From an uncultured Bacilli bacterium (GTDB lineage Bacteria > Bacillota_I > Bacilli_A > RF39 > UBA660), in assembly GCA_934090735.1 (NCBI GenBank), contig CAKOJR010000002.1:138788-202787 (forward strand): a stretch of 64,000 nucleotides of DNA, read 5' to 3'. The notes beneath the pieces were generated by a model. That model saw only the letters and a program-made list of their open reading frames with translations, ran no database searches and was not told where the DNA came from. A program made the position numbers and the translations under genes. The first letter of the stretch is position 1; every line of letters begins with the position of its first letter. This document shows positions 7,567 to 40,300 of the stretch, piece by piece.

Positions 7567-7591
7567 AAAAAAAGAGCCTAGGTTATAGGCT
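7567..7591 (-). terminator. rho-independent terminator after paralogue A
   Basis: Minus strand AGCCTA-TAACC-TAGGCT followed by CTTTTTTT. Stem overlaps the stop codon. Nearly the same hairpin recurs at 9264-9286. Confidence 0.5.
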
Positions 7592-12314: not shown

Positions 12315-12315
12315 T

Positions 12316-14622: not shown

Positions 14623-15122
14623 TGTTCCTCCTTAAATATTTTTCCATCATAAGGAGTTATATCAAATAGTTTTTGATTATTGTCAATCGTTACAATTAGG
14701 TAATAATCGCCTACTTTTGAGCTACCGTCTATAGAGTCTTCGTAAAGGACTCCTTTAAGATAGTATTTATTAACTTTTTTTGATATTTTTTCTTCGTACA
14801 TTTTGCTTGCACTGAATGTAAGACTTCTTCCTGCAAAATTGTCTAACTTTGTTAAAACGTTTTCGCTAGTTATTTTGTTTTTGTCTATATATGATTCATT
14901 AAGAACCTTTATAAGAGCATCTTTATTTTCACTTGTAAGATAATTAATGTATTTTGTAGCACATCCGTTAGCTGTGAAGAAGTCTGAATAGTTTTCAACT
15001 AGTTTAATGTTAGTTTTTGTGCTTTCATTAGTTGTATTATCATTTTTTATTTTATTTATGATTATTGTTCCTAGAACTGTAAGAACCCCTATAGCAATTA
15101 TAATATATGTTTTTTTATCCAT
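14619..15122 (-). CDS. N-terminally anchored small protein (possible VirB8/TcpC-like component)
   Basis: 167 aa. Single N-terminal TM. AGGAG SD upstream. Position between the two hydrolases in the T4SS operon. Confidence 0.3.
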   Translation of the reverse strand: MDKKTYIIIAIGVLTVLGTIIINKIKNDNTTNESTKTNIKLVENYSDFFTANGCATKYINYLTSENKDALIKVLNESYIDKNKITSENVLTKLDNFAGRSLTFSASKMYEEKISKKVNKYYLKGVLYEDSIDGSSKVGDYYLIVTIDNNQKLFDITPYDGKIFKEEQ

Positions 15123-15136
15123 AAATTATCTCCTTA

Positions 15137-17218
15137 CTAATATCCGTGTACGAATATCTTACATTCTTTTTGACGCCTGCTTCTTAGTCCGGCTTCAAAT
15201 TGTGAACCAGCTCTTATAGCGATTGTGTGCCACCAGTTTGTACACAGTGCGTCTGTTGAACCATATGAGTTATATGCTTCAAAGAAACCACCTATTGTAC
15301 CTCGGTTATATTTCATGGATGTTAATGCGTCTAATTGGTTATCTTTTAAGGTTAAACCGTTACTTACGCAAAGTGCTTTTATTGATTCGCGGTCTTCGTT
15401 AAGCCGGTCAGCAAAGATTTGATCAACTACAGACTTGCTCATTGTTGTTCCACAGTAATTATAATATTCGTTTGTAGAGGTTAATTTTATACCATATCTA
15501 GCAAATAAATTTAAGTTATTTGCTAGAGTGATACCATAACCTACTGTAGGTATATCTCCATCATTACAATATACTGTGTATGTATCACCAGAACCGATGC
15601 TTCCTTCTAGCATTTTGATAAGTTCAACTAAATTAGATGAAGTCGATGGTGCTGGTCTTGGATTATCTTTGTCAACGTAGTTTAGGGGGTCTACTCTAGT
15701 TGATACGTCTGTTCTAACTTCAAAGTGTAAGTGAGTACCAGTAGAACGTCCAGATGAACCTACTTTAGCAATTACTTGACCTTGGCGAACTGAATCATTT
15801 ACTTTTACATTGATAGTTCCTTGATGAAGATGGGCATAAAGTGTATACATTCCATCTGAGTGACTAATCATAATGTAGTTTCCATATCCGCCACCACATG
15901 ATTTGTCGCCAAAAGATACACAGTTATTAATTACTTTTGTTACAATTCCATCTTTAGATGCAATAACGTTGACAATTCCTGGGTCACCGCCTGGAGCAAT
16001 ATCTATTCCAGAGTGACCACTATTAGCAGCTCCTGTTATTGGGTCAATTCTTAGACCAAACATACTTGTTATTTCTGTTGGTACAGGAGTTCCGGATGCA
16101 AATGTTACGCCACCTTCTTCTGTTGTTTCTGATGAACCAATTGGCCACCAGAAAGCATTGGGATTTCCAGCACTAGTATAGTTTACAATGTTATCTTCCT
16201 GACCGTAATTTTTGAGTAAATCTTTAATCATTTCTACTATTTTAGTTCTTGCTTCAGTTATGTCATCAATATATTCTTCTTTTTCAGATTCTGTTAATTC
16301 GGTATTTTTAGTTTTTCCGGTTTTTTCTAAAATTTTTGTATAGTAATTACTTAGGTGAGGCTTTTTATCGAAATAGTTACCTTTTACAAGGAATTCCCAA
16401 TATTTACTTTCAGCAACTTCTTGGGCATTGTTAACGGTGTAGGTGTAGTTTTCATAACCACTATTTGCGGCTTCGGTTTTACACTGATTTTCAGCGTCAG
16501 ATTTGATACCAAAAAATGATAGTACACCACTATTTGCTAGTACTTTTTCCCAGAAACCTACATAATCTTGTTTAATAAGGTCTTTACATGTGTTACCTTC
16601 TAGAATGGCCATGCTGCCAACGCATTCTGTTGTGGTTGTTCCATCTGTATTTTCTACAATTGTTGGTGCATAGGTTCCATAACATTGTGAGCGGTAGCCT
16701 AGCATCGATTTAATTAAAAGTTTTATTGTGTCTGATTCATTTTCCCAGTATGATGCATCGTATTCTTTATCGATATCATAATCGGTGTCTGTTTCATCTC
16801 CTGTGTATGGATTTGAGGATGAACTAGTTATTTCTTTATAGTAGTCGCCTGAGTCTGCAAATAAGTCCGGGTCTAATTCAAAGAAAGCTGTCATAATAAT
16901 TATTTTATCATCGATGAATAAACCTCTTGACTGATATTTTGCAAGTAATTTATATAGTCTTGTATAAAATACTTTTTGGCTAGCGATAATTTTTTCTTTA
17001 CATTTATCTATTTCTGGCTGGTTATCATAGTCCTCACTACAAAGGTATGTCCAATATCCTAAATTTTCTTCGGCAAATTTATCAAAATCAAATTCTGAAT
17101 ATTTGAAACTTGCTGCTTTTGTTATGTTTGGACTAAGAAAAAAAACTATTAAAAAGAAAGGTATTAAGGAAATACCTATTTTTAATAGTTTATTAGTTAA
17201 ATGTTTAAAGTTAAACAT
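15137..17218 (-). CDS. peptidoglycan hydrolase: M23 (LytM-type) endopeptidase + C-terminal GH24-type lysozyme
   Basis: 693 aa. N-terminal signal/anchor. M23 motifs HSGIDIAPGG and GTHLHFEVR. C-terminal LEGSIGSGDTYTVYCNDGDIPTVGYGI resembles the T4-lysozyme E..D..T(x)GYG catalytic region. Confidence 0.75.
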   Translation of the reverse strand: MFNFKHLTNKLLKIGISLIPFFLIVFFLSPNITKAASFKYSEFDFDKFAEENLGYWTYLCSEDYDNQPEIDKCKEKIIASQKVFYTRLYKLLAKYQSRGLFIDDKIIIMTAFFELDPDLFADSGDYYKEITSSSSNPYTGDETDTDYDIDKEYDASYWENESDTIKLLIKSMLGYRSQCYGTYAPTIVENTDGTTTTECVGSMAILEGNTCKDLIKQDYVGFWEKVLANSGVLSFFGIKSDAENQCKTEAANSGYENYTYTVNNAQEVAESKYWEFLVKGNYFDKKPHLSNYYTKILEKTGKTKNTELTESEKEEYIDDITEARTKIVEMIKDLLKNYGQEDNIVNYTSAGNPNAFWWPIGSSETTEEGGVTFASGTPVPTEITSMFGLRIDPITGAANSGHSGIDIAPGGDPGIVNVIASKDGIVTKVINNCVSFGDKSCGGGYGNYIMISHSDGMYTLYAHLHQGTINVKVNDSVRQGQVIAKVGSSGRSTGTHLHFEVRTDVSTRVDPLNYVDKDNPRPAPSTSSNLVELIKMLEGSIGSGDTYTVYCNDGDIPTVGYGITLANNLNLFARYGIKLTSTNEYYNYCGTTMSKSVVDQIFADRLNEDRESIKALCVSNGLTLKDNQLDALTSMKYNRGTIGGFFEAYNSYGSTDALCTNWWHTIAIRAGSQFEAGLRSRRQKECKIFVHGY

Positions 17219-17236: not shown

Positions 17237-19027
17237 TTATAGTCCTCCACCTGAACCAAAGGAATCTAGTTCATCTTGAGTAAGAACTACATTTATTCTC
17301 ATACGTCTATTACCGCATACAAATAGTGCTTCACCTTGACTGTATGTTTTAATACTTTCTTTTTCATTGTCGTTTAGATCAATTAATCTTGATAAGTCTT
17401 CAACTGCTTGCTTTTTAAGTCCCATTACTAGGTAGTATGCTGCGTTGTCAAAGATTGCTTTTCCATGAACAAAGATATTTTCAGCAGCAAAGTCTGTAGG
17501 TTGCTGAGTGATAATGATTGTTCCTGTGTTGTATTTACGGCTACGTCTTTGAATTTGTGCTAGGAATTCGGCACCAAGTTCATTTTTACTTGATAGAAGA
17601 ACATGTGCTTCATCTACAAACATAATTGTATTTTTAGATTTATCTAAACATAATCCCCAAGCATATTTTAGAATGTTAAAGAATAATGCATTACGAATGT
17701 TTTCATCACTATTCATTAGTTCTTTAATATTAAATACTATAAAGTCACTCTTTGTTTCGATTGTTGTGTGTCCATTAAAGTAGAATCTTAGTTCTTTTAC
17801 AAAAGGTCTAACTCTTAGTTCTAGACGTTCCATAACGTCTTTTTCTCTTGTTGCTTCTGGCATTGATAAAAGTTTTCCTTTAATGGTTGCATATACGTCA
17901 TCAAAGATTGGAAAGTCTTTTGAGGTAAACTGACTAAAGTCTGTATTAAAATCAATACCGAATCTTTTATAAGTGTCTTGAACAACTTCACTAAACATTG
18001 CTAGAACGTCTTCTTCGATTGATGGATAGTAATATTTCATGAAGGCTTTTAATGATTGAAGAGTTCTTGTTAGAACTGTGTATCCTAAACCTTCTTTGAT
18101 TTCTTCTTCATCCGCATCGAAAATTACTTCTAGTGGGTTTACCATACCAAATGAACCACCACGACCTAAATCAATGAAATCGCCACCAAAGTTATGAGTC
18201 ATTTCACTTAATTCGCCTTCAGGGTCAATAGCAATAATTTTACAACCGTTTCTTATATGTGTTCTAAGCATTAGTTTAGCAGCAGTTGATTTACCACTAC
18301 CAGAAGTACCTAAAATAATCATGTTAGCATTGTTTCTATTAAACTCTTTTTTAGTTTGATATAAGAACTGATTAAATAAGACTACACCACCAGAGAAATC
18401 AACACCTAATAATGTGCTTGATCCTGGATCTTTAATACTATCAAAAACAAATGGGTACATTGCTGCTATTGTTGGACTAGGAATAGGAATACCTACTCTT
18501 TGCTCTACGTCTTGTTTAGGGAATATAGGAATCATTGATTTTAGAACTTTTTCTTGCTCAAACATCATTGGGATTCCCCTCATTCCCATTGCATCAAGAT
18601 AGTTTCTAATTTGCATTTTTTTATTTTCTAATTCTTCTTTTGTATCAGCTGTTAGCATGATATGCATTTGAAAGTCAAATATTTTTGATTGAGTTGCTGC
18701 AAGCATTTGGGCAAATGATTCTAAAGATTCGTAATCTTGACGAATTATTTCTTGCCTTGTTCTTTCATTTTCTCTTTGATAACTTTCTTTTAAATCAGCT
18801 ATTTGTTTATTGATCATACGACTCATTGTAGAAAAGTCGATAGGAATATGTTTAATTACCACTTTTACACCTGGTAAGTTAGTAATATTTGCTAAAAATC
18901 CAGGGCCTATAATTTTGGGGTAACTTATGATAGTTAATATTGTTGCATATTTATCACTAATCATAAATTCATTTACATCGAATTTCATTCCTTTAGGAGC
19001 TATTTCACTTTTAAATGTATTAGACAT
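17237..19027 (-). CDS. VirB4-family T4SS ATPase, C-terminal (ATPase) portion
   Basis: 596 aa. Walker A ILGTSGSGKST, Walker B IMFVDEAH. N-terminal segment DKYATILTIISYPKIIGPGFL is typical of Gram-positive VirB4/TraE/PrgJ proteins. Confidence 0.85.
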   Translation of the reverse strand: MSNTFKSEIAPKGMKFDVNEFMISDKYATILTIISYPKIIGPGFLANITNLPGVKVVIKHIPIDFSTMSRMINKQIADLKESYQRENERTRQEIIRQDYESLESFAQMLAATQSKIFDFQMHIMLTADTKEELENKKMQIRNYLDAMGMRGIPMMFEQEKVLKSMIPIFPKQDVEQRVGIPIPSPTIAAMYPFVFDSIKDPGSSTLLGVDFSGGVVLFNQFLYQTKKEFNRNNANMIILGTSGSGKSTAAKLMLRTHIRNGCKIIAIDPEGELSEMTHNFGGDFIDLGRGGSFGMVNPLEVIFDADEEEIKEGLGYTVLTRTLQSLKAFMKYYYPSIEEDVLAMFSEVVQDTYKRFGIDFNTDFSQFTSKDFPIFDDVYATIKGKLLSMPEATREKDVMERLELRVRPFVKELRFYFNGHTTIETKSDFIVFNIKELMNSDENIRNALFFNILKYAWGLCLDKSKNTIMFVDEAHVLLSSKNELGAEFLAQIQRRSRKYNTGTIIITQQPTDFAAENIFVHGKAIFDNAAYYLVMGLKKQAVEDLSRLIDLNDNEKESIKTYSQGEALFVCGNRRMRINVVLTQDELDSFGSGGGL

Positions 19028-19577
19028 TACTCATCACCGTCCCATACTCATTTTTCTTTCCTCCATTAAGGAAGTTTTGTAGCAAAAATTTTAAGTCATC
19101 ATCACTTGCTTGTCTTGAATTTAAGCCGCAACCGGCTAAGTTTGCAATCATGGTTTGAACTCTTTTTTGAACTACGTCTAGTCTTTTATCTCTAAATAAG
19201 AAAAAGTATTCTGTATCGACAGCGCTAATACTGCTTCCACTAAACATTTCGGCTTTTTGAATGTCTTGATTAATTAGTTTTCTTACAGCCTGATTTTGTG
19301 CATTATCGTATTGTAATTGTAGTTGGGATAGATACAATTTGATATCTACTGGTCTATCTGCTACTACTAGCCAGAATTCATAGTCTAGTGTGTTATAAAA
19401 ATTTCTTAAATTAAAGATTATGGTATTTTGAGTTTGATAATCAAGGATAAAGATATTTTTTGGTTCTACCTTTATACCTGTAACATAATAATTGTTATTT
19501 AGGATTATCATTCCATTTTGAATGGCTTTAACTGGTACCCAATCTTCAGAATACTTACTTGTCATCTGTTTTGCCAT
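19020..19577 (-). CDS. VirB4-family N-terminal domain encoded as a separate, translationally coupled ORF
   Basis: Start set at MAKQMTSKY (AAGGTTGGTG SD 8 nt upstream). Sequence WVPVKAIQNGMIILNNNYYVTGIKVEPKNIFILD resembles the N-terminus of full-length Gram-positive VirB4. Stop overlaps the next ATG (ATGTCTAA). 185+596 aa approximates a normal VirB4 length. Confidence 0.6.
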   Translation of the reverse strand: MAKQMTSKYSEDWVPVKAIQNGMIILNNNYYVTGIKVEPKNIFILDYQTQNTIIFNLRNFYNTLDYEFWLVVADRPVDIKLYLSQLQLQYDNAQNQAVRKLINQDIQKAEMFSGSSISAVDTEYFFLFRDKRLDVVQKRVQTMIANLAGCGLNSRQASDDDLKFLLQNFLNGGKKNEYGTVMSNV

Positions 19578-19878
19578 AACTATTACACCAACCTTTCCAA
19601 TAATAAACTCGATTATTTGTATAATATGTAAATACGTTTTTAATAAATGTTCGTACGTTATGCTGATTTGGTAAAGGTACAATTAAGAACGTACAAATTA
19701 GTGCCGGGCAAAGTATTATAAGTGCTGTTTTTAAGTTATTTGTAGGTATTGATAGCATAAGTACGAAGCTTATTACAACACCACTTATAAATATGATTAA
19801 ATCCGTTGTATTAAATAACCCAAGTATTAACATTGATTTTTTTGAGTTTGCCGGTATCAAGTAATTATTATTATCCAC
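19555..19878 (-). CDS. VirB3/PrgI-like small membrane protein
   Basis: 107 aa. GTG start with AGGAGG 8 nt upstream. Two hydrophobic helices. Lies immediately upstream of VirB4, as VirB3/PrgI does. Confidence 0.45.
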   Translation of the reverse strand: MDNNNYLIPANSKKSMLILGLFNTTDLIIFISGVVISFVLMLSIPTNNLKTALIILCPALICTFLIVPLPNQHNVRTFIKNVFTYYTNNRVYYWKGWCNSYGKTDDK

Positions 19879-19895
19879 TTTTTATTCCTCCTTTA

Positions 19896-20342
19896 TTAAA
19901 TTGATTTCCCTAGATGAAATTCTAATATCTTTTTATTTTCTTGCGCTACTATGTAGTTAGCTAGATATTCTTTAACTTTTAAGTGGTTACCATAGTCTGG
20001 TACAATTAAACCATTCCTTTTTGCTTGGATAGTCTTTCCTCTAAGATATTTATCAATTTCTCTTTGAATCCTTTCAGCTAATTCCTTTGGAATTGCTTCA
20101 TATAAACGTAATTTTTTCACTAAAAAGTAATTTCTTATTTCAGTTTGACTTTTACCTTTAAATTGACCTTCAAGTTTACCACCTTGATAATCAACTAATG
20201 TTGATTTAAGAGCTTCTTCAATTGAATTCAGTACGTCTTCATCAGCAAGTTGCCAATAGTAATCACTTAATTCAATATATTTTTTACAAAATACTAAATC
20301 ATTTTCCCTTTGAGGCCCATTTATAAAACTATCTATACTCAT
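19896..20342 (-). CDS. hypothetical cytoplasmic protein, T4SS cluster
   Basis: 148 aa, no TM. Start shares one nt with the stop of the upstream VirB6-like gene (TAATG coupling). No motif recognised. Confidence 0.4.
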   Translation of the reverse strand: MSIDSFINGPQRENDLVFCKKYIELSDYYWQLADEDVLNSIEEALKSTLVDYQGGKLEGQFKGKSQTEIRNYFLVKKLRLYEAIPKELAERIQREIDKYLRGKTIQAKRNGLIVPDYGNHLKVKEYLANYIVAQENKKILEFHLGKSI

Positions 20343-22426
20343 TATTTTTTATCCTTCTGTTTTTCTACTGTGCTTGCAAATGTATTTGCTTTAACTTGTT
20401 TATTAATTGCTTTAGAAACATCTCTAAGTTTTGCTATATCATCAGGTGTTGCCAGTTGCTCACTTGCTCTAGTGAAAATTTCACCCAACTCATCTATACT
20501 GGTTATACCATTTGCAGCAAGAACTGCTTTTCTCGCTTCATCTCCTAATGTGTTAAGTGTTTTTTCCATTTGTGAGCATATTATCTTGCCTTCGTCCTTT
20601 AGTGCACTTCCAAATGCTGCATCGTTAAACTTTTGTTCTAATGTTTCTCTTTGTAGTTCCTCAAAATGAGCATTAATTATACCATCATCTAAATTAGTTA
20701 CTGGCACGGCTGTTCCTGCAGCATATAATGTTCCATCTTTTCCTTTAATTTCTTTTCTAAACCTAACACTTTTACCATTTTGATAATCTTTTAATGCACC
20801 TTTTCTTGCGCTTTCAGTTTCTGGATCTGTAAATGCATCAAATAGTGTTGTGAATTTTGATTTCATCGCTTGAGCTGCTGCTAGTTTTTCATTTGAAACT
20901 CCCCTATTATTAAGGAAATTATCAAGATTGTTAATTTTTCCTGAAACCCATGTCTTAGGGTCTTGAGTAGCTGCTTGTGCTTCTGAAACTACTGTATCTT
21001 TTAGATGAACTGCTTTGCCAGGAATTGCTCTTACATCATTTTTAATTGCATTGATATCTGCAATTTCTTGAGTTCTTGCATTTCTGATAGCACCTTTTAC
21101 TTCGCTCCAGTCACTAACATTACCATTTTGCCATCCTCTACGTCCTGCGTTAAGTGCTGTAGGAACAACTCCTGCTAAACCAAGTGCACCTCTGGCTAGT
21201 CCACGGGCAATGTGTCTTTGACCTTTTTGATCTTTTTTAAATCCTTCAACAAATGCTTTTCCACTGTTAAATAGTGATTGAGGCACTCTTGCTGCTACTG
21301 CACCGCCAAGTGTTGCTGCTCTTTTTGCATATTCATTATCATTAAGTTTTTTCTTGATTGACATTTCTGGTATTTTAATACTAAATATTTCTTCGATAAG
21401 TTTTGGGGCATCTTTAGCAAATTTTAAGATTCCTAAGATTACAACTACGGTTGCTACTATGTTTACTAAGGCACTACCACCACTAGCAAATACGTTAATA
21501 TCAGATACAAACCCGATTAAGAGCATTGCAAAGTTTATAATAATTATTCTTTCAAATATTTGTAGATATGTTTTAGAGAACTCACCAAACCATTTGTCGA
21601 ATACGCCACCTTTTGGTTTTGTTATTCTTAATAGTATTGGAACAGGTGCGATTAATTTTAGTGCCCCTAGTTTAGCTGCTCTTACTCCTAAATCTAATGA
21701 GAATGATAAGAATAGATATGCTGCTACTACACCTGCAATGGTACTTAATGGGAATAGGTATTCCATTTTTTCATCACTGATGCCTTGTCTTAAATCTGGA
21801 TCTTTAAAGAAACGATAAAGACCAGTCATACTATTTTTTCCTTCTTCTGCAAGTTCTCTATAATGTTCGCACATTTCTATTGATGAGTCTTCACATTCAA
21901 CTAAAGTAACTGCTTCTTTATTTTCATTAAGTGGATGATAAAAAGCAGTAAAAATTGTTACAGAAACATTTAATGCTCCTTTAGTCGTTCCATTTTCTCC
22001 TGAGTCACTGGCAGTTGATCCCATTATAAGATTACCTAATGTGTTGTTTTCAACAATATGGTCTTGGAATATCTGCATATACTCGCAAATTAATGGGAAT
22101 AATGTAACTAAAACTATTGATATAATGGTATTTTGAATAATATTCTTAATTGATTTATCACCTTTATTTAATTGATCCGGGTCAATTATGGAAAGAATGA
22201 TATTGTATGCGAAAACAAAAAGCATTACGATACCAATTATCGTATATATTCTTCTTGATATAACGCCTACGTTTTCTGTTGTAAATACTTCTACTTTACT
22301 AACTACTTCAAATAGCTGGTAACATACATTTATAATCATGTATATAACATAATCTATTGATAGAAGAATCCCATAAAAAATATTGGCTGCCCAGGTTCCG
22401 AATCCAGCTCCTGTTAGTATTCCCAT
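20342..22426 (-). CDS. VirB6/TrbL/PrgH-like polytopic membrane protein with large hydrophilic C-terminal domain
   Basis: Start at MGILTGAG (AGGAGG 7 nt upstream). About 6-7 TM helices in the first ~370 aa, then a Lys/Ala-rich soluble half. Assignment from topology, size and position only. Confidence 0.45.
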   Translation of the reverse strand: MGILTGAGFGTWAANIFYGILLSIDYVIYMIINVCYQLFEVVSKVEVFTTENVGVISRRIYTIIGIVMLFVFAYNIILSIIDPDQLNKGDKSIKNIIQNTIISIVLVTLFPLICEYMQIFQDHIVENNTLGNLIMGSTASDSGENGTTKGALNVSVTIFTAFYHPLNENKEAVTLVECEDSSIEMCEHYRELAEEGKNSMTGLYRFFKDPDLRQGISDEKMEYLFPLSTIAGVVAAYLFLSFSLDLGVRAAKLGALKLIAPVPILLRITKPKGGVFDKWFGEFSKTYLQIFERIIIINFAMLLIGFVSDINVFASGGSALVNIVATVVVILGILKFAKDAPKLIEEIFSIKIPEMSIKKKLNDNEYAKRAATLGGAVAARVPQSLFNSGKAFVEGFKKDQKGQRHIARGLARGALGLAGVVPTALNAGRRGWQNGNVSDWSEVKGAIRNARTQEIADINAIKNDVRAIPGKAVHLKDTVVSEAQAATQDPKTWVSGKINNLDNFLNNRGVSNEKLAAAQAMKSKFTTLFDAFTDPETESARKGALKDYQNGKSVRFRKEIKGKDGTLYAAGTAVPVTNLDDGIINAHFEELQRETLEQKFNDAAFGSALKDEGKIICSQMEKTLNTLGDEARKAVLAANGITSIDELGEIFTRASEQLATPDDIAKLRDVSKAINKQVKANTFASTVEKQKDKK

Positions 22427-22437
22427 AGTTGTTCCTC

Positions 22438-22785
22438 CTACTCTATACAAGTTGTGTATCTATCATTGATGAAGCTTAATAAAAGATTTAATAATATTGG
22501 TAAAAAGAATAATACTGCTACTAGGATAAGTCTTGTCGTAAGTTTTTTATTGACTTTTTTATATTCTTCTGGGTCTTTATTTACTAATGCAACTATGTAG
22601 TCATAAGTTGAATAAGCAATTACTAATATTGGGCCTATTATTTTCATGTATTTAAAAATATTTGTTAAGTCTTCCATTGTTGATTCGCCTAATAAACCAG
22701 AACATGTTTCTTCTGATAAAGCATATACATTATTATTTATTGTTAAAATTAAACCTAGTATTATAAGCCAAGCCTTTTTTTTCAT
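22438..22785 (-). CDS. VirB2/TrbC-like two-helix hairpin protein, paralogue 3
   Basis: Signal peptide MKKKAWLIILGLILTINNNVYA. Motifs YMKIIGPILVIA and KKLTTRLILVAVLFFLPI ... FIND ... C, shared with ORFs 23866-24192 and 26122-26535. Confidence 0.4.
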   Translation of the reverse strand: MKKKAWLIILGLILTINNNVYALSEETCSGLLGESTMEDLTNIFKYMKIIGPILVIAYSTYDYIVALVNKDPEEYKKVNKKLTTRLILVAVLFFLPILLNLLLSFINDRYTTCIE

Positions 22786-22812
22786 ATTAATCAAACCTCT
22801 ATATACACTATA

Positions 22813-22863: not shown

Positions 22864-23763
22864 TTATTCGGGTGCTATCTCATTTTTGTATTTTAGCTTA
22901 TAAATATTTGTGGTTTCAATGTATAATGCTTGTCTTCCCATTGAGTCATAACTTTTATTAAATTTTTCTCTTGAAACTTTAATATTTTTTTCGTCTTTTA
23001 AAGGGTCATTGATAAAATAATAGTCTTTATCCATACCTACAATTACTACTACATGAGCATTTTTAGGATATGTATAGGTTTTTGATTTATCATAACTAAA
23101 CCATTCATAAACTTCTTTGACTTCGCTGTAATCGGTTGTTGTCCATACTAAGACTGGATTACCACTTTGAACATACTCTTCTAAAGGTCTTTTATCATCT
23201 GAAGTATAAACATGACCTACTGTATCTTCTGGAAGCATTTTTTTAAAAATTGTATATATAGAATTTTTTATTACGGGTAAAAAAGTTCCCCATCCGCCTT
23301 TTTCACTGCTTGGGTCTCCTGCATAAAACTCGCTTGGATCTGGGCCAAAACGGACTCCATTATTTTCATAAACTTCTGCTTTTGGTAAAAAAGAATCAAC
23401 GTATTCTTCCATTGCAATGTCAATGCCTGCATATTTTAATAGCATGGTAGCACTTGCTACTTCACAACCGTTAGGATAGTCAGGATTTTGTTTTACTAAT
23501 GGAAAATTGTTAGTGATGTAACTATATTGTAATTTGCTGTAATAGCTATCTAAAATGTCTTCATAGTCGTAAATACTATAATTGCTTCCTTTCTTTGATA
23601 ATATTAACCTGTTAGTGTAATAATCATCTTTTAATGATGGAATTATTGCATGTTTTAATTTATCTTTTTCTCTTGTATATAGTTTATACCATACGAAATT
23701 ATTAGATATTATTATAATTATTAAGATACTAATTATTATTGTTTTATATTCTTTCTTCTTCAT
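22864..23763 (-). CDS. membrane-anchored C39-like (YvpB-type) cysteine peptidase
   Basis: 299 aa. N-terminal TM. QNPDYPNGCEVASATMLLKYAGI (catalytic Cys context) and NAHVVVIVGMD ... NDP (His/Asp region) fit the Peptidase_C39_2 pattern. Confidence 0.55.
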   Translation of the reverse strand: MKKKEYKTIIISILIIIIISNNFVWYKLYTREKDKLKHAIIPSLKDDYYTNRLILSKKGSNYSIYDYEDILDSYYSKLQYSYITNNFPLVKQNPDYPNGCEVASATMLLKYAGIDIAMEEYVDSFLPKAEVYENNGVRFGPDPSEFYAGDPSSEKGGWGTFLPVIKNSIYTIFKKMLPEDTVGHVYTSDDKRPLEEYVQSGNPVLVWTTTDYSEVKEVYEWFSYDKSKTYTYPKNAHVVVIVGMDKDYYFINDPLKDEKNIKVSREKFNKSYDSMGRQALYIETTNIYKLKYKNEIAPE

Positions 23764-23834: not shown

Positions 23835-23862
23835 CTAAAAAAAATCTCAATAATTTGAGATT
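23835..23862 (-). terminator. rho-independent terminator after the 108-aa VirB2-like gene
   Basis: Minus strand AATCTCAA-ATTA-TTGAGATT (8-bp stem) followed by T8. Confidence 0.7.
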
Positions 23863-23865
23863 TTC

Positions 23866-24192
23866 TTAGTCGCAATTCCAAGGACTTAAAATACAATCTT
23901 GGCATTTTTTGAAATTATCTATTGGCATATCTTTATATCCATTGATAGTACCAAATAACCACATTACTACAGTTGGTACGAAGAAAATTAGTACACCAGC
24001 AATAGCACGATACATTAAACGCTTACTAGCTACTTTAATATCATCATCTTTGCTTCCAACAACTGCTTTTCCTAAATCAAACATACCATATCCAATAATT
24101 AATAGTGGAATAGCTATTTTAAATATTGTTAAGATCCAACCAAGAAATCCTAATACGTCTGCTGCTTGATCACAAAATCCGGTAACGTTCAT
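23866..24192 (-). CDS. VirB2/TrbC-like two-helix hairpin protein, paralogue 2 (no signal peptide)
   Basis: 108 aa. FCDQ...IFKIAIPLLIIGYG...SKRLMYRAIAGVLIFFVPT...TINGY...KKCQDCILSPWNCD. AGGGAG SD upstream. Confidence 0.4.
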   Translation of the reverse strand: MNVTGFCDQAADVLGFLGWILTIFKIAIPLLIIGYGMFDLGKAVVGSKDDDIKVASKRLMYRAIAGVLIFFVPTVVMWLFGTINGYKDMPIDNFKKCQDCILSPWNCD

Positions 24193-24251
24193 AATTCACA
24201 TCTCCCTTACATAATTAAATTTTATCTAAATTTTTCGTTATTGTCAACAAA

Positions 24252-25322
24252 TTATTTAAAAAGGCCGAAAAAACTTGTACTTCCTTGTTTTCCAAAACCT
24301 AATTTAAGTAGTAATTTATCAACAACAAGTAATCTTTCTGCTCGGTCGTTAATTGCCGGCATATTGTAGTATACTTTGAATTTTGTTTCGTATTCAAAGT
24401 TTGATAATTCATCATCCTTTATTGCACTTTGATTAAGTATTATTTTTCCACCTGCTATTTTTTCTCTAATGTTAATGTCTTTTTTTAGTGCTTTATTTAA
24501 AGTTATTATTCCAGGTTTTACTAAATATAAAATGTCATGACAAAGATTTTTCTCTTCTAATCCATTTAAGTCTATTAAGATTATTTCGGTATCTCTAGCA
24601 ATATTTATTTTATATTTAAGATCCTCTATTGATGTACAGAATGTAATATCTCCATCTTTAAAATAAATTGAGTCTTGTTTAAACATTTCAAATGCTTTGA
24701 CTTTATAATTTATTCTTAATTGTTTTAACATCATGTACATTAGAGTTGTAGATCCTGCATGGTCGGTTACATTTTGGATTCCAATAATTCTAGCGCTTGT
24801 TTTTATTGATTCTGCTTCTTTGACGTATCCTGGATTGTAGTCATTATTTGGATAGTAGTTATTTTGGTATGATTGGTTACCAAACGTATTTGGACCCATC
24901 TGATTTACTGCTATGCTTTGACTTTGACTTTGATTTAAACTATCTAAATATTTACTAACGTCATTTAGTGTGTTTGGGTGTGACAGAAGATAGTTTATAC
25001 CAGCCGCATTTCTAGTAAAGTTGTAGTAGCCATTTTGCACTAGAAGTGTTAGGTAGCTACTACTATTTACTAATTCACTGTTGTTAAGCAGAAGAACTGT
25101 CTTATTTGGGCCAAAGAAACTTAAGAACCTTAAAACTTCTTTGATATCAAAGTAGTTTTTTATAGCGGTTATATCGATTACGGCATTATTATAAAATAGG
25201 TTACCTAGCTGTTCTTCGATGGACTCTCTAGTAAACTCTCCTGTAACAGTTTTAATTGAGTTGATATCGACACTATCAATTATTTTACTATTTTGATTTT
25301 TAATTATTATGTTTATATTCAT
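24252..25322 (-). CDS. TadZ/CpaE-like protein: receiver-like N-domain + MinD/ParA-fold domain with degenerate P-loop
   Basis: 356 aa. N-terminal beta-alpha pattern (INIIIKN, AVIDITA, KTVLLLN), Q/N-rich linker. RIIGIQNVTDHAGSTTLMYMMLKQL sits in place of KGGxGK(T/S)T, followed by EIILIDLNG and KIILNQS strands. Confidence 0.4.
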   Translation of the reverse strand: MNINIIIKNQNSKIIDSVDINSIKTVTGEFTRESIEEQLGNLFYNNAVIDITAIKNYFDIKEVLRFLSFFGPNKTVLLLNNSELVNSSSYLTLLVQNGYYNFTRNAAGINYLLSHPNTLNDVSKYLDSLNQSQSQSIAVNQMGPNTFGNQSYQNNYYPNNDYNPGYVKEAESIKTSARIIGIQNVTDHAGSTTLMYMMLKQLRINYKVKAFEMFKQDSIYFKDGDITFCTSIEDLKYKINIARDTEIILIDLNGLEEKNLCHDILYLVKPGIITLNKALKKDINIREKIAGGKIILNQSAIKDDELSNFEYETKFKVYYNMPAINDRAERLLVVDKLLLKLGFGKQGSTSFFGLFK

Positions 25323-25334
25323 GTTAAATCTCCA

Positions 25335-25811
25335 TTAATCTGGGCTATCATAGCCATTATCATTTGCAAAATATATTGGCTTAGTTTCACCTGTTATTGG
25401 AAATGTAAATATTTCTCCAAAAATAGGTAAATCCACTCTAAAAAAGACAGTTACTTTATAATAATTTTTTTGAATATTACCATTATTATCAATAATCCTC
25501 GCAATACAGTATTTGTATCTATTTAAATTTACTGAGCTTCTTTCAAATCCTCTTGCACTATCAAGGTTAGATACATCTGCATAAGTTGGACAAGTACTGT
25601 AAACTACGTATCCTACCGAACTTAAATAGTCTTTGATTTCATCTTTGGTAGTTACGCTTACTCCTTCATTTTTTTCAACAATATTAACAATGCCATTTTT
25701 TACTTTAAAAGCTTTAGAATAATTAATGGATAATGCTAGAAAACTAGTAAAAAGTACTATAAAGACAATAACGATAGTGAAAAGCCAGGTTCCACCTATC
25801 GATTCTCTCAT
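25335..25811 (-). CDS. membrane-anchored protein with prepilin-like leader (pseudopilin/TadE-like topology)
   Basis: 158 aa. MRESIGG then hydrophobic TWLFTIVIVFIVLFTSF. Shares M[KR]ExxG and FTSF with the 79-aa ORF upstream. Confidence 0.25.
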   Translation of the reverse strand: MRESIGGTWLFTIVIVFIVLFTSFLALSINYSKAFKVKNGIVNIVEKNEGVSVTTKDEIKDYLSSVGYVVYSTCPTYADVSNLDSARGFERSSVNLNRYKYCIARIIDNNGNIQKNYYKVTVFFRVDLPIFGEIFTFPITGETKPIYFANDNGYDSPD

Positions 25812-25821
25812 ATGTTATATC

Positions 25822-26061
25822 CTATTCTTCTTTATTTGGACATTGTACTGGTTGTATAGCGTTGTTTTCATCTAAATATGAACAATCACATAACTCTGCA
25901 CCTTCGGTACACTCACAGTTGAATGCTTGAGAACAGTTGGCACTTCTTGTAATGTTTGCTCTAATTGAAGGCCAAATAAATGAAGTAAATACTACTCCTA
26001 TTGCAGCAATTGCAACTACTGCTACCGCAGTCATACTTAATTCACCTGATGCTTCTTTCAT
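25822..26061 (-). CDS. small pilin-like protein: short charged leader, hydrophobic helix, six-Cys C-terminal region
   Basis: 79 aa. MKEASGELSMTAVAVVAIAAIGVVFTSF, then NCSQAFNCECTEGAELCDC...QC. Strong AAGGAGG SD. Confidence 0.3.
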   Translation of the reverse strand: MKEASGELSMTAVAVVAIAAIGVVFTSFIWPSIRANITRSANCSQAFNCECTEGAELCDCSYLDENNAIQPVQCPNKEE

Positions 26062-26086
26062 TATTATTCCTCCTTATCTTAAAATA

Positions 26087-26115
26087 ATTATATAATAAAA
26101 AGAATTGTAAATCAA
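26087..26115 (-). promoter_or_regulatory. putative sigma-A promoter for the 79-aa/158-aa/TadZ-like/108-aa unit
   Basis: Minus strand TTGATT-N17-TATAAT, overlapping the terminator hairpin at 26097-26120. SD and ATG follow within ~25 nt. Confidence 0.4.
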
Positions 26116-26120
26116 TTCTT
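26097..26120 (-). terminator. rho-independent terminator after the 137-aa VirB2-like gene
   Basis: Minus strand AAGAATTG-ATTTA-CAATTCTT (8-bp stem) followed by TTTAT. Confidence 0.55.
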
Positions 26121-26121
26121 T

Positions 26122-26535
26122 TTAACAATTATTTGGGTGAAATAGACACTCCGTACATGTTTCATATTCACCTTGATAATTTGTCCAGTCATTGATGGTT
26201 GATAGAGCAATATCAAGGATAGTTGGAAGTAAAATTATAATAACACCTGTGAGAATTCTTTTACCTAATGTTTGGGTACATTTTTTAAGTTCATCTTCTT
26301 TTCCTTCTTTAACGCCATTATAGAAGATAAATGCACCTTGACCAATTATTATTAGGGGTACAAATAATTTTATAAACATAATTATGTAACCAACAAATCG
26401 CATTACATTTTGAACTTCTTCTTTAGCGCACATGTTTTCTGCTACTGCTTCGGCATTTACAGATAGTGGCATGATTAATAATATTAAAAGAAGAAATTTT
26501 AAGTATCTTTTTTTATTCGTAGTCATAATTATCAT
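26122..26535 (-). CDS. VirB2/TrbC-like two-helix hairpin protein, paralogue 1
   Basis: 137 aa. Signal peptide ...LLIMPLSVNA. MCAKEE...FIKLFVPLIIIGQG...GKRILTGVIIILLPT...TINDW...TCTECLFHPNNC. Start overlaps the end of the upstream adhesin gene. Confidence 0.4.
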   Translation of the reverse strand: MIIMTTNKKRYLKFLLLILLIMPLSVNAEAVAENMCAKEEVQNVMRFVGYIIMFIKLFVPLIIIGQGAFIFYNGVKEGKEDELKKCTQTLGKRILTGVIIILLPTILDIALSTINDWTNYQGEYETCTECLFHPNNC

Positions 26536-27664
26536 CTTCTTTCTGTTCTGGCATTTTAGTTATAAGTTTGTAAATTACGTAGCCGCATACTCCAAGTAAA
26601 ATAATAATTAGAAATATTAGTCCAAAATTGCTGGATTTTTTAATTGTAATTGTGTAATCTCTGGAGTTACCATTTTCAGCTACTACGGTGATAACTATTT
26701 TACTTTTGTTTTTTAAGTTACTATTATTTTTAACTTCATATGTTGCATTATCACTTTGAGTTTCAACTGTTATATTTAAAGTTTTATCACTTTTGTTTAT
26801 TTTTAATGTGTAATCATTTTTTTCGGGATTAAAATCAATATTATATCCTTCTATTTCAATTCTTGATAGGAAGGAATTGTCATCTAGTTCATCAAGATAT
26901 GATAGATTTATTTGATAAATTCTTATAGAACCATCTTCAGCAGTTACAGTAACAGTTATTGGTTTTTCGATATCAATGTTTTCGTTGTTTTCAATTTTTA
27001 CTGTTGCTTTATCGCTTTCAGCTTTAGCAGTTACTTCAATACTGCTAGTTTCTCTTGATATTTTTAAGTAATATGTTTCTACTTCTTTGCTAAAGATAAA
27101 GTCAGTGTCTTTTAAAGTAAGTTCTTTTAAGTAATTATTACCATCTTTTAGATTTTCAGTGGTTGTAGTTGTGGTTGTAGTGCTTGTAGTTGTTTGAGAG
27201 GTAGTTTTACTTGTTGTACGTGAAGTTGTTTTTGTAGTTTTGGTAGTCTTTTTTGTTGTTGTAGTTGTGGTTGTAGGTTTTGTTGTACTTTTGTATTCTA
27301 GGCCATTACTTGTTCTACCGCAGTCATATGATGCAAGAATTCCACAGTAACTTGGATAAGATGTTGTACGGCATGAACCACTATAGGCAGTGCAACTACT
27401 TTTAGCTACGTAATATAGTGGGTCTGTATTGCCATTTGAGCATCTTACTAATCCAACTGTATAGAACTGAGTTTGCCATGTTCCACTATAACAAGTTGCT
27501 TTTACACAGTGACCATAGTATCCTTGATTAAAACTTCCTTGAGCGTAACTTGCTTGAAAATCCAAGCATGTTTCTAGGTCTTTTACGTAGCTAACATCTA
27601 AGTCAGCGTTTACTTTGATCGGAATTAAAGCAGCAAGAAGTATGGTTAATAAATACTTTTTCAT
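26513..27664 (-). CDS. surface protein: signal peptide, Cys-rich head, Thr/Lys-rich stalk, two cadherin-like beta-sandwich repeats, C-terminal TM anchor
   Basis: Start at MKKYLLTILLAALIPIKVNA (ATG 27662-27664); the track extension runs through a terminator hairpin. TTTTTTTKKTTKTTKTT tract. Repeats LKELTLKD...YQINL and LSRIEIEG...YTITIKK match the PF12733-type pattern. Confidence 0.6.
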   Translation of the reverse strand: MKKYLLTILLAALIPIKVNADLDVSYVKDLETCLDFQASYAQGSFNQGYYGHCVKATCYSGTWQTQFYTVGLVRCSNGNTDPLYYVAKSSCTAYSGSCRTTSYPSYCGILASYDCGRTSNGLEYKSTTKPTTTTTTTKKTTKTTKTTSRTTSKTTSQTTTSTTTTTTTTENLKDGNNYLKELTLKDTDFIFSKEVETYYLKISRETSSIEVTAKAESDKATVKIENNENIDIEKPITVTVTAEDGSIRIYQINLSYLDELDDNSFLSRIEIEGYNIDFNPEKNDYTLKINKSDKTLNITVETQSDNATYEVKNNSNLKNKSKIVITVVAENGNSRDYTITIKKSSNFGLIFLIIILLGVCGYVIYKLITKMPEQKEDDNYDYE

Positions 27665-27673
27665 ATTACCTCC

Positions 27674-27713
27674 AAAAAAAGATACCGACTTGTTAACCAA
27701 AATCAGGTATCTT
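27674..27713 (-). terminator. hairpin terminator/attenuator between the 200-aa and 383-aa adhesin genes
   Basis: Minus strand AAGATACC-(19 nt)-GGTATCTT followed by T6, which runs directly into the GGAGG of the next gene. Confidence 0.45.
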
Positions 27714-27750
27714 CAAATCTATATTAATAATATCATAAAATTATTAATAT

Positions 27751-28353
27751 TTAAATCTTTTTAAATACATTTTTCTTATTTAAAATAAATAGTCCACCAA
27801 TTAATACAGCAGCAGTTGTTCCTAATAATAGATAATAGTCTTCTACACCAGTGTCTGGATTTGTTCCGTCATCTTTAGTTGTATCGCTTGAACCATCGCC
27901 ATCTTTATCTGCTGTTTTTGTAGTAGTAGTTGTTGTTTTATAATCATCACCACTTGTATTTTTTGCACAGTTATAAAATATTTTTTGAGTGAAGTAAACA
28001 TATGGACCACTATCTGTACAAGATGAGCCTGCTTTCATTTCACTAGTTATTGCTCCAGCGTCAATTATAGCATTTGGTTTAGTGTTGCCATTAGCACAAC
28101 TTACTGAGTATGTATTAAGTTTTGTATGAACATTTTTACTATTTGTACAAGATACTTTAATACATTCTAAATAGTAACCTGCGGTGGCATTTGAAATGCT
28201 TGTGCCACCGTTTTGATTAACTGCTTCTTTACATTTGGTTTCAGCGTCTTGTTCATCTTTTAAATTCCAAATTGTTGTTGTTGTATTTTGATCTACTTTA
28301 GCAAATACACCTATAGGCATTATGAGTAATAAACTAATTAATAATTTTTTCAT
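27751..28353 (-). CDS. surface protein: signal peptide, Cys-rich head homologous to 26513-27664, Thr-rich stalk, NPDTG sortase-type sorting signal
   Basis: GYYLECIKVSCT...SVSCANGNTKP aligns with GYYGHCVKATCY...LVRCSNGNTDP. C-terminus NPDTG + hydrophobic + KKNVFKKI. Confidence 0.6.
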   Translation of the reverse strand: MKKLLISLLLIMPIGVFAKVDQNTTTTIWNLKDEQDAETKCKEAVNQNGGTSISNATAGYYLECIKVSCTNSKNVHTKLNTYSVSCANGNTKPNAIIDAGAITSEMKAGSSCTDSGPYVYFTQKIFYNCAKNTSGDDYKTTTTTTKTADKDGDGSSDTTKDDGTNPDTGVEDYYLLLGTTAAVLIGGLFILNKKNVFKKI

Positions 28354-32565: not shown

Positions 32566-32850
32566 TTAATTTTGAGTTAATAAAATATATTGAGCAAGTA
32601 GATTTTTAAAATTTTCTATGTATACTAGTAAAGCTTCTAAAAAGTCATCTTCACCTTCTAAACCGTTTTTCATATCTAGTATTTCCCTACTTTTCAGATA
32701 ACCTAAATCAATTTTTGATTCTTCTGCTAAATTGTCGATTATAGCATTAATTTCTTTTACTGAATTTATTATTTCCATTCTTTTGTTGGGAATATCTAGT
32801 GCTTTAAAAGCTTCCATGTACTCATTAAATGCATTATTAAATTCAGTCAT
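32566..32850 (-). CDS. hypothetical small helical protein
   Basis: 94 aa, no TM. Start shares a nt with the upstream stop (coupled). No motif recognised. Confidence 0.4.
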   Translation of the reverse strand: MTEFNNAFNEYMEAFKALDIPNKRMEIINSVKEINAIIDNLAEESKIDLGYLKSREILDMKNGLEGEDDFLEALLVYIENFKNLLAQYILLTQN

Positions 32851-33377
32851 TATTTGCTTTTTCCTCCATATAAAGCATCAATTTCACTTGACTTCATATT
32901 TTCAATATTTAGTTTATCTGGTTTTTTTGCGAATAATTTGGTTACTGGAGATAAATTTTGATATCTTGCTTTAGCCCTTTTGAAAGCTAGCATTTTAGCA
33001 CCTTGTTCTTTTGATTCTTCTGCTTGCCTTTGTTCTTCTGCTTGTCTAGCTTCTAATAGTTCGTTATCTCTTTCGTAAGCAGCAGATCTTTTATCAGGGT
33101 CCATTCCACGATAATAATCTTCTCTTTCTTTAATCTCGTCATGTTGTTTACGTTCTTCTGGTGTCATATTTTTTAGTGCTTCAGCAAGTTCTTCTTTTCT
33201 TTTTGCACTTTTTTTATAAAAATCTTCTAAGTCATCTTTTCTTCTTGCTTCTGCTAATTCTTTGTCCCATTCAGCTTCGGTCATGCCAAAATATGGATTA
33301 TCGATTGGGCTTACTCCTTCTTGATAGGCATTATCATAAAATTCTCTATCTCTTTTTAAATCTTCTTCTCTACTCAT
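32850..33377 (-). CDS. hypothetical highly charged (E/K/R-rich) protein
   Basis: Start at MSREEDL (AGAGGTG SD 6 nt upstream). Predicted long charged helices. No motif recognised. Confidence 0.4.
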   Translation of the reverse strand: MSREEDLKRDREFYDNAYQEGVSPIDNPYFGMTEAEWDKELAEARRKDDLEDFYKKSAKRKEELAEALKNMTPEERKQHDEIKEREDYYRGMDPDKRSAAYERDNELLEARQAEEQRQAEESKEQGAKMLAFKRAKARYQNLSPVTKLFAKKPDKLNIENMKSSEIDALYGGKSK

Positions 33378-33453
33378 AACAAGCACCTCTTTCTTATTTT
33401 GATATTATCATTAAATAATTTATTTTTCAACATTTGCAGTTATTTGTTTACAC

Positions 33454-39528: not shown

Positions 39529-39536
39529 ATTTCCTC

Positions 39537-40292: not shown

Positions 40293-40300
40293 TCTTGCAC

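Follow-up and report, generated by a model that had tools for sequence, protein, structure and literature searches.

Genes and transcription signals at the locus

The DNA analyzed here is a 64-kb stretch of contig CAKOJR010000002.1 from an uncultured Bacilli bacterium (hereafter the window), with 30% G+C and nearly all genes on the minus strand. Inside a conjugation island that encodes a type IV secretion system (T4SS), four minus-strand open reading frames (ORFs) follow one another, coding for F79 (79 amino acids (aa), 25822-26061, with an AAGGAGG ribosome-binding site), E158 (158 aa, 25335-25811), Z356 (356 aa, 24252-25322) and pil108 (108 aa, 23866-24192). All four are present where an initial annotation of the sequence had placed them, and public gene calls on three other contigs give identical products of 79, 158, 356 and 108 aa. 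The surroundings of the first three genes were compared in 80 related loci, each taken with up to 10 kb on either side, in which ORFs were called and clustered. F79, E158 and Z356 form a trio that is kept together across these loci, and its reading as a Tad-like (type IV filament) module is partly supported by the evidence below.

After pil108, a hairpin followed by a U-run (about 23835-23866, minus strand; folding free energy (dG) -14.6 kcal/mol, z -4.6, RNAfold) has the form of an intrinsic terminator, and the strong terminator predicted there is convincing. Most relatives have a hairpin and T-run of differing sequence at the same position after pil108. A consensus terminator scan missed the one at 23835-23866 because it has fewer than three G-C pairs. 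On the other side of the four genes, the proposed promoter exists as a site at 26115-26087 with 10 of 12 matches. Nonetheless, promoter-like sites are not enriched over shuffled sequences (47 in the 6-kb region versus 37.8 +/- 6.1), and this site overlaps a terminator-like hairpin. Its -35 hexamer sits within the hairpin and T-run that follow the upstream 137-aa VirB2-like gene (26087-26125, minus strand; dG -10.7, z -4.6), and the same hairpin is present in two close relatives (L001 and L002). The best promoter-like site of the region, TTGACA-17-TAAAAT with 11 of 12 matches, is located at 24219-24247 on the minus strand, in the 59-nt gap upstream of pil108. Given that this better site lies just upstream of pil108 and that the claimed promoter is at chance level, the four genes are not clearly one unit, and the view that they form a transcription unit of their own is not established.

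Predicted architecture of Z356

The AlphaFold2 model of Z356, built on 39 relatives, has a predicted local distance difference test score (pLDDT) of 83. It comprises an alternating beta/alpha domain at residues 1-135 (pLDDT >90), a disordered Q/N-rich stretch (132-170) and, at residues 175-345, a P-loop-NTPase-like domain. The model and Foldseek thus agree with the receiver-like N-domain, Q/N-rich linker and MinD/ParA fold that had been read from the sequence. In Foldseek, the C-domain matches the SIMIBI NTPases HypB, MinD, FlhG, FleN, ParA and NifH with E-values of 5e-6 to 1e-3, those of MinD, HypB, FlhG and ParA being 5e-6 to 1e-4. Among the PDB hits, the only entry that shares both the length and the two-domain order of Z356 is 3fkq, an 'NtrC-like two-domain protein' of E. 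rectale, which is aligned across both domains with an E-value of 1.9e-4. We take this entry to be the Eubacterium rectale TadZ of Xu et al. 2012.

The degenerate P-loop that had been pointed out, VTDHAGSTT, is found at residues 185-193. In the family alignment this position reads NxT[ED]H[AS]G[AS]TT in place of KGGxGK[ST]T, with G190 and T192 invariant and H188 near-invariant, and both Walker-A lysines are absent family-wide. The family also ends in a conserved LFG[IL]FK tail, which resembles the membrane-targeting tail of MinD (...FLKRLFGG). Because the tail is MinD-like, Z356 is predicted to bind the membrane peripherally, and the tail probably holds the protein on the membrane's cytoplasmic face. 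According to a later paper that cites Xu 2012, E. rectale TadZ is also without both P-loop lysines, yet retains activity (PMC10482377).

The TadZ/CpaE architecture proposed for Z356 stands at the level of the fold, for both domains and for the degenerate P-loop, but membership of the TadZ family in sequence does not. The window protein has no Pfam or NCBIfam match, and when the 39 aligned relatives were scanned with Pfam at E-values up to 10, only 2 of the 39 touched CbiA (E 0.006). A profile of Z356 found no relative among the PDB sequences, 3fkq included, and hhalign comparisons of the family with E. coli MinD and CheY and with the ParA-like protein of a genuine Tad locus were not significant. 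The protein was also checked for being an ordinary partition ATPase or an unrelated fold, and neither was found, the modelled architecture being TadZ-like and the Walker-A lysines gone.

The family is large. Its homologues form 320 clusters at 90% identity. When 1.84 billion representatives were searched exhaustively with a profile, 553 family members (clusters at 50% identity) were obtained, of which the best 150 were inspected. At least 568 species genomes encode a Z356 relative. The carriers are mostly gut metagenome-assembled genomes of uncultured Bacilli, 'Tenericutes', Mollicutes-like organisms and Erysipelotrichaceae, in which the protein is annotated as 'hypothetical' throughout. [Clostridium] spiroforme is also reported to have a relative.

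The small proteins F79 and E158

The leader-like starts and hydrophobic helices that had been described for the two small proteins are confirmed in the sequence. F79 starts with MKEASGEL (putative leader MKEASG), followed by a single hydrophobic helix and a C-terminal tail with six cysteines, and E158 starts with MRESIGGTW (putative leader MRESIGG), followed by a hydrophobic helix. F79 is found in 73 of the 80 loci, often duplicated, and its relatives (among the aligned sequences listed) have a near-invariant start MKEA[TS]GEL[NS]xT, after which come the hydrophobic helix, a W-P that is conserved and a tail rich in cysteines. The E158 family, with 198 homologues, starts with MRE[AS]IGGTW, and M1, E3, I5, G6, W9, C74 and C102 are invariant in its alignment. 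The two families are otherwise unrelated, and the M[KR]E[AS]xG start that they have in common is near-invariant across the 80 loci, as would be expected of substrates of one leader peptidase or one assembly machine. The FTSF motif that had been seen in both proteins is indeed present, but it lies inside the transmembrane helices and is conserved in neither family; as a shared motif it is rejected as a coincidence within two transmembrane helices.

The AlphaFold2 model of E158 (pLDDT 81) has a helix at residues 5-48 (44 residues), a second helix at 53-66 and four beta strands, a predicted fold that is pilin-like in outline but has no match in the PDB. E158 was also considered as a VirB8-like NTF2 protein, and this was rejected, with no VirB8, TcpC or PrgL among the top Foldseek matches.

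F79 has no Pfam or NCBIfam match. E158 has no real match in either collection, its sole listing being a spurious sub-threshold one to ATG9 (E 7e-4, 19.1 bits versus a cut-off of 27). No match to PF07811 (TadE) was found for E158 in Pfam, and hhalign of its family against the TadE and TadG-like proteins of the related genome L031 was negative. The absence of the canonical G/xxxxEY or GFxxxE motif from both small proteins, already remarked on in the initial annotation, holds, while the genuine Flp of L031 has the motif (...RGQ/ALVEY) and the TadE of that genome matches PF07811. At the corresponding putative cleavage site, the F79 start reads MKEA[TS]G/EL[NS]xT. What remains of the suggested likeness to Flp/TadE-type prepilins is the common short N-terminal motif before a hydrophobic helix; family matches and the canonical motif do not bear it out.

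In four loci, E158-type N-termini (MRESISIT..., MRQTIGGTW...) are fused to C-terminal extensions of about 370-520 aa at the position of the second E158 gene (L073, 228-1745; L077, 7967-9523; L080, 908-2464; L066, 7016-8128). These fusions are reminiscent of modular minor pilins with adhesin domains. A further family with a related start is DUF5411 (PF17424), whose gene lies upstream of CpaB-like genes in about 30 loci (L030, L032, L057 and others) and whose proteins begin with M[KR]ES[FVY]WGYWII. The resemblance of this start to the MRE[AS]IGGTW of E158 suggests that the machine has DUF5411 as a further subunit or substrate.

Gene order in related loci

Essentially all 80 loci have the genes in the order F79-E158-Z356; Z356 comes directly after E158 in every one of them, and duplicates of the small genes are common. 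A conserved operon has the trio at its 3' end in about 35 loci. Its genes encode, in order, a large protein (about 1100 aa), DUF5411, RcpC/CpaB-like proteins (one or two; PF16976; TIGR03177 E 1.3e-11), a T2SSE ATPase, two paralogous polytopic membrane proteins and the trio. The ATPase matches T2SSE in Pfam (E 1.4e-27) and the ATPase of a Tad locus in hhalign (100%), and its best NCBIfam models are VirB11, TadA-family and TrbB, all below cut-off. By position and topology, the two membrane proteins after it are a putative platform. An order of ATPase, two membrane proteins, and small then larger pilin-like genes parallels that of Gram-positive tad loci.

The company of the trio varies. Features within 10 kb were counted in the 34 loci that have at least 8 kb on both sides: a T2SSE ATPase is found in 21 of them, VirB6 or VirB4 in 17, VirD4 only in 5, a VirB2-like gene only in 6, and no T4SS gene in 6. 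The genes after the trio follow three patterns, namely VirB2-like genes and then VirB6-like and VirB4 genes, a C39-like hydrolase and VirD4, or chromosomal genes (SpoIVA/HU, Obg, tRNA synthetase). In three genomes, a complete canonical Tad locus lies 3 kb downstream of the module. The combination of T4SS and Tad-like genes that had been proposed for the window is real and widespread rather than peculiar to it. Co-occurrence of the module with T4SS genes, which had been set beforehand as a check of that proposal, is not general, given that the module also occurs without a T4SS, beside Obg, SpoIVA/HU or tRNA synthetase genes; such independent occurrence had been named as grounds for refuting it. 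The module accompanies a Tad-like motor in some genomes, a T4SS in others, and both or neither in still others, and it is therefore autonomous and not a T4SS-specific accessory.

In the clade of the window (L001-L027 and L043; 42-86% identity), the trio lies inside the T4SS and the ATPase, CpaB-like, membrane and DUF5411 genes are absent. In L003 and L004 (64% identity), DUF5411 and the large protein are kept and the ATPase block is lost, and for this reason the loss of this block seems to have occurred more than once. The trio is thus kept without an ATPase in cis in more than 25 loci, after at least two apparently independent losses, which speaks for a function in which no linked ATPase is required.

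Two further arrangements were observed. In seven loci (L034, L037, L042, L059, L060, L064 and L076), genes for a hydrolase-like protein and a VirD4-type coupling protein come directly after the full operon and its trio, and no VirB4 or VirB6 is found in the 10 kb at hand; in these seven, a type-IV-filament machine, and not a T4SS channel, may be the partner of the coupling protein. In the chromosomal context without a T4SS (about 10 loci: L029, L031, L051, L065-L067, L069, L070), a divergent Rce1-like CAAX/CPBP intramembrane protease and a metallophosphatase precede the module.

Motor and processing genes

It had been stated that no TadA/PilB-type ATPase or TadB/C platform lies near the trio, and that the only A24 peptidase and GspF-family platform of the window are about 13 kb away. 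Both statements are correct. In tblastn searches of the 64-kb window, the ATPases of relatives found no T2SSE ATPase, and their CpaB-like, polytopic membrane and DUF5411 genes found no counterpart. Pfam identifies the distant genes as PilD (39537-40292) and T2SSF (40301-41968), which, together with an N_methyl pilin, make up a type IV pilus cluster at 39052-41968 on the minus strand. This cluster is chromosomal, outside the island and flanked by glmM, gpmI and cdaA-type housekeeping genes, and its PilD and T2SSF are the only candidate trans-acting processing and assembly genes in the window. The T2SSF protein is 555 aa long, with an N-terminal extension of 200 aa, and its gene is directly beside glmM.

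Closer to the trio, a membrane-anchored Peptidase_C39_2 protein is encoded at 22864-23763 on the minus strand (Pfam E 2.9e-19), between two VirB2-like genes. Its gene is sub-clade-specific, being found only in this window and in L001 and L002, that is, in 2 of the 80 related loci. As a general leader peptidase it was rejected because it is so rare although the motif is invariant, and because F79 has a single Gly; E158 carries Gly-Gly at positions 6-7. Its substrate could be the pilin-like proteins or the cell wall. In five other loci, the module is followed by the gene of a 718-aa protein whose C-terminus is C39_2-like.

VirB2-like paralogues and the surrounding island

Three VirB2-like paralogues are encoded in the region, all with C-terminal Cys motifs, and two of them are followed by hairpin and T-run terminators. 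pil108 is a two-helix membrane protein with a C-terminal Cys motif, and its VirB2-like status comes from a sub-threshold match to PF18895 (E 6.8e-4, 20.1 bits versus a cut-off of 26.6). It is the commonest downstream neighbor of Z356, its cluster (C4) being placed after Z356 in 48-50 of the 80 loci. pil137 (26122-26535, minus strand), directly upstream of the trio, has no Pfam pilin match of its own and falls in C4 with the 108- and 118-aa proteins. pil118 (22438-22794, minus strand) adjoins the VirB6-like gene and matches PF18895 (E 1.3e-4, 22.4 bits) and, in NCBIfam, the Mbov_0395 pilin-like (E 0.0036) and MMCAP2_0566 (E 6.2e-5) models. VirB2-like arrays of up to five copies recur in related loci. 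VirB6-like genes are syntenic in 33 of the 80 loci and VirB4 in 23.

The T4SS core lies 3' of the trio, at 17237-22450 on the minus strand, and was recognized with Pfam and NCBIfam. It consists of a VirB6-like protein of 702 aa (20342-22450, minus strand; Mbov_0396 match), small proteins and a VirB4 that is split into two minus-strand ORFs, an N-terminal piece (19020-19682), which matches residues 71-281 of VirB4_plasma, and the ATPase piece (17237-19027). The VirB4 matches are to Mbov_0397 and VirB4_plasma. The gene order of this core is the same in related loci. The two VirB4 pieces overlap by 8 nt. All related loci that reach that far show this split (clusters C13 and C16), which excludes a sequencing error as its cause.

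Pfam and NCBIfam scans delimit a monoderm-type conjugation island of about 7.3-38 kb, bordered on one side by murE and on the other by a CotZ-like gene, the pilin-PilD-T2SSF cluster and housekeeping genes. The island further encodes a VirD4-type coupling protein (9288-11573, minus strand; Pfam T4SS-DNA_transf E 5.9e-55), cell-wall hydrolases (12316-14115 and 15137-17218), large cadherin-like surface proteins and a DnaB_2/IstB-like pair. Its VirB4, VirB6-like and pilin-like proteins match, below threshold, the NCBIfam models Mbov_0397, Mbov_0396 and Mbov_0395 of the Mycoplasma integrative and conjugative element (ICE). No relaxase or integrase/recombinase domain was recognized among the island ORFs scanned with Pfam (7300-38000), and the ORFs at 7590-8336, 8422-9168, 11625-12347, 14134-15122 and 32566-33386 are without any annotation. 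For a gut anaerobe, the island encodes predicted surface proteins with unusually many cysteines, as seen in the N-domains of a 395-aa and a 200-aa protein (26513-28353), in F79 and E158 and in the tails of the VirB2-like proteins. Such sequences point to disulfide-stabilized extracellular structures.

Function of the trio

The architecture of Z356 and the genes that accompany the module in most genomes mark it as Tad-like, and it is at the same time a family of its own, with TadZ, Flp and TadE sequence and motif tests that were negative. In the window, it has evidently been retained without a motor and under constraint. Our preferred reading, to which we give an even chance, is that the trio is a self-contained three-family module from a divergent Tad-like system of uncultured gut Bacilli, in which Z356 would be a membrane organizer and F79 and E158 minor subunits, and that together they aid the T4SS and VirB2-like proteins of the island to build or position a surface contact structure.

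The following mechanism would correspond to this reading. F79 and E158 would be bitopic pilin-like proteins, each with a short N-terminal motif, a hydrophobic helix and a disulfide-bearing ectodomain. Z356 would be a membrane-associated TadZ-like organizer, non-catalytic or weakly catalytic, made of a pseudo-receiver and a MinD-fold domain without the Walker-A lysines, and could serve as a membrane hub for docking and positioning. With the VirB2-like proteins, F79 and E158 may act as minor or priming subunits of a surface filament or contact structure that aids mating-pair formation. The module would have been kept in a monoderm conjugative T4SS, beside VirB2-like subunits, after the CpaB-like gene, the T2SSE ATPase and both polytopic membrane genes had been lost. 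Should the N-terminal motif be a leader, an unlinked peptidase must cut it, and the chromosomal PilD (39537-40292) would be the sole candidate in the window. The energy would have to be supplied by the ATPases of the T4SS or, in trans, by those of host pili.

Several observations weigh against this reading. Pfam, NCBIfam, the PDB profile search and hhalign give no sequence-level link of Z356, F79 or E158 to TadZ, Flp or TadE. In Foldseek, the TM score of Z356 with 3fkq is only 0.32, and other two-domain proteins (IcmF) score higher, although a low value is expected because the orientation of the two domains is arbitrary. The model of E158 has no significant neighbor in the PDB (best Foldseek E 0.25). 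The canonical prepilin motif is absent, with Glu at +1 and not at +5 after the putative cleavage Gly, and none of the 80 loci has an A24 prepilin peptidase at a distance of 10 kb or less. For the full operon of the relatives, the two membrane proteins after the ATPase are not shown to be TadB/C, given that the hhalign comparison was negative and that a single faint match to T2SSF (E 0.35) came from Pfam. The ATPase scores equally well against VirB11 and TadA models, and for this reason the 'Tad' label of the operon rests mainly on the CpaB-like gene and on the gene order.

The fact that the module occurs without a T4SS in several genomes, in three of them at 3 kb from a complete canonical Tad locus, leads to a different possibility, which we consider rather unlikely. 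F79 and E158 would be true pilins of a stand-alone adhesive pilus made in trans, cut by the PilD of the host and assembled by a host Tad, type IV pilus (T4P) or Com ATPase and platform encoded elsewhere. Like the thin pilus of IncI R64, it would do no more than bring cells together, and it would have no physical link to the T4SS. A chromosomal pilin, PilD and T2SSF are at hand in the window, and T4P are established as accessories of conjugation (PMC12857230, PMC12102498). However, an element that moves between hosts would need a compatible machine in each of them, the 64-kb window holds no T2SSE ATPase, and the leader is unlike the motifs of the host N_methyl pilin or of genuine Flp. Such a pilus would also leave unexplained the tight linkage to VirB2-like genes in 48-50 of the 80 loci.

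For a classical prepilin leader, the N-terminal motif is too short as well as too acidic, and no peptidase is linked to the module in any of the 80 loci. There may then be no filament at all: F79 and E158 would stay uncleaved and bitopic, with their conserved cytoplasmic N-termini bound by Z356 in a MinD/ParA-like positioning or gating complex, which would place or activate the adjacent envelope machine, be it a T4SS or a Tad-like ATPase. The MinD-like fold and C-terminal tail of Z356, the description of TadZ as a localization hub (PMC6668835) and the persistence of the module with different partner machines are all in line with this. Nonetheless, a motif common to three unrelated ectodomain families (F79, E158 and DUF5411), in some fusions carrying large C-terminal domains, is more typical of filament subunits, and the Cys-rich ectodomains suggest a structural role at the surface. 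We consider this explanation unlikely.

It could also be thought that the trio is what is left of a Tad-like operon in decay and has no function in the island, given that the ATPase, CpaB-like and membrane genes of the relatives are missing from the window. This is highly improbable, as all reading frames are intact and more than 25 ATPase-less loci from different species bins, with 50-86% identity to relatives, have kept the N-terminal motifs and the substitutes of the catalytic site invariant. That Z356 is an ordinary ParA-type partition ATPase, and the small proteins unrelated to it, is suggested by its ParA/MinD fold and is hardly credible, given that both Walker-A lysines are absent family-wide, the window protein matches no CbiA, AAA_31 or ParA model in Pfam, no ParB-like gene is adjacent, and the synteny with two membrane proteins is strict in 80 loci, chromosomal ones included. 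Conservation and the P-loop effectively exclude both the remnant and the partition readings.

A bolder version of the reading that we prefer is that a T4SS with VirB2-like arrays has been fused with Tad-derived pilin-like proteins and a TadZ-like pseudo-ATPase, giving an undescribed class of conjugation apparatus in monoderm gut Bacilli. Its filament would be primed or organized without a dedicated type-IV-pilus ATPase (by VirB4/VirD4 or by none), and M[KR]E[AS]xG would be a new class of leader in three families, DUF5411 included. We hold this to be doubtful; if it were true, a mixed Gram-positive conjugative pilus of T4SS and type-IV-filament parts would follow.

Gram-positive conjugative T4SSs are said to have no pili and to rely on adhesins (PMC12102498). 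The VirB2-like arrays and the Tad-like module of this island, and of hundreds of loci in gut Bacilli, suggest filament-assisted conjugation in monoderms, with relevance for gene flow, resistance genes included, in a large and poorly known part of the human and animal gut microbiota. The F79, E158 and Z356 families are without a Pfam or NCBIfam model and are annotated as 'hypothetical', however many species genomes carry a Z356 relative, and the common N-terminal motif gives DUF5411 its first functional context. The variant without an ATPase seen in the window is a natural experiment on which parts of a type IV filament work without a motor of their own.

Comparison with known systems

The closest structural parallel to Z356 is TadZ/CpaE, above all the TadZ of E. 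rectale, in which a receiver-like N-domain is likewise followed by a MinD/ParA domain and to which the Foldseek alignment extends over both domains. A residue-level match of the N-domain to CheY was not found with hhalign, and no sequence similarity to TadZ/CpaE is detectable with Pfam, HMMER or hhalign. As known Tad genes are, the Z356 gene of relatives is an operon-mate of a T2SSE ATPase and a CpaB-like gene. It differs in its position, which is 3' of the pilin-like genes, at the end of the operon, and not ahead of the ATPase, in its MinD-like C-terminal tail and, in the window, in having no ATPase or platform partner. With MinD itself, Z356 has in common the fold and a short hydrophobic/basic C-terminal tail (...LFG[IL]FK), but it has no deviant Walker A motif, an extra receiver-like domain and no MinC/MinE context.

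F79 and E158 resemble Flp and TadE/TadF in having a short N-terminal segment, about 20 hydrophobic residues and a small ectodomain. As in the operon of F79 and E158, Flp and TadE/TadF come as two size classes of small gene in tandem after ATPase and membrane genes. They differ in that F79 and E158 have no G/xxxxEY or GxxxxEF motif, carry Glu at +1 and not at +5, and have no linked TadV.

The upstream half of the full operon of relatives is like the CpaF-PilC-DUF5411-internalin-like operons predicted in Roseburia, Ruminococcus and Eubacterium, which are uncharacterized (Miller et al. 2022, PMC9523054), in having DUF5411, a CpaF-type ATPase and a very large protein. Those operons are without the F79, E158 and Z356 families and without linkage to a T4SS, and the window itself is without DUF5411 and the ATPase. 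Tad genes or a TadZ-like domain have also been described at Gram-positive type VII secretion system loci (PMC11217815).

With regard to the T4SS, the VirB4, VirB6-like and pilin-like proteins of the window match the Mbov models of the Mycoplasma ICE, and the presence of several PF18895-like paralogues resembles the VirB2-like arrays of Patescibacteria, described in a paper in which Gram-positive T4SSs are said to lack VirB2 (PMC12102498). The literature found on these two T4SSs makes no mention of a Tad-like module or of a TadZ-like protein. More generally, no account was found in the literature of a Tad/T4SS hybrid in Gram-positives, of the three families or of a Tad-like module in a monoderm T4SS. 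Conjugation and type-IV-filament genes on one element, with a pilus that aids transfer or is required for it, are known from the thin pilus of IncI R64 and from PAPI-1 (VirB4/type IV coupling protein and T4P; PMC12857230). Those are complete type IVb pili in diderms, whereas here the host is monoderm and Bacillota-like and the Tad-like module is cut down to two pilin-like genes and an organizer. Hybrids of T4SS and type IV filaments are already known in Gram-negative elements, and what is new is a Tad-like trio in a monoderm T4SS.

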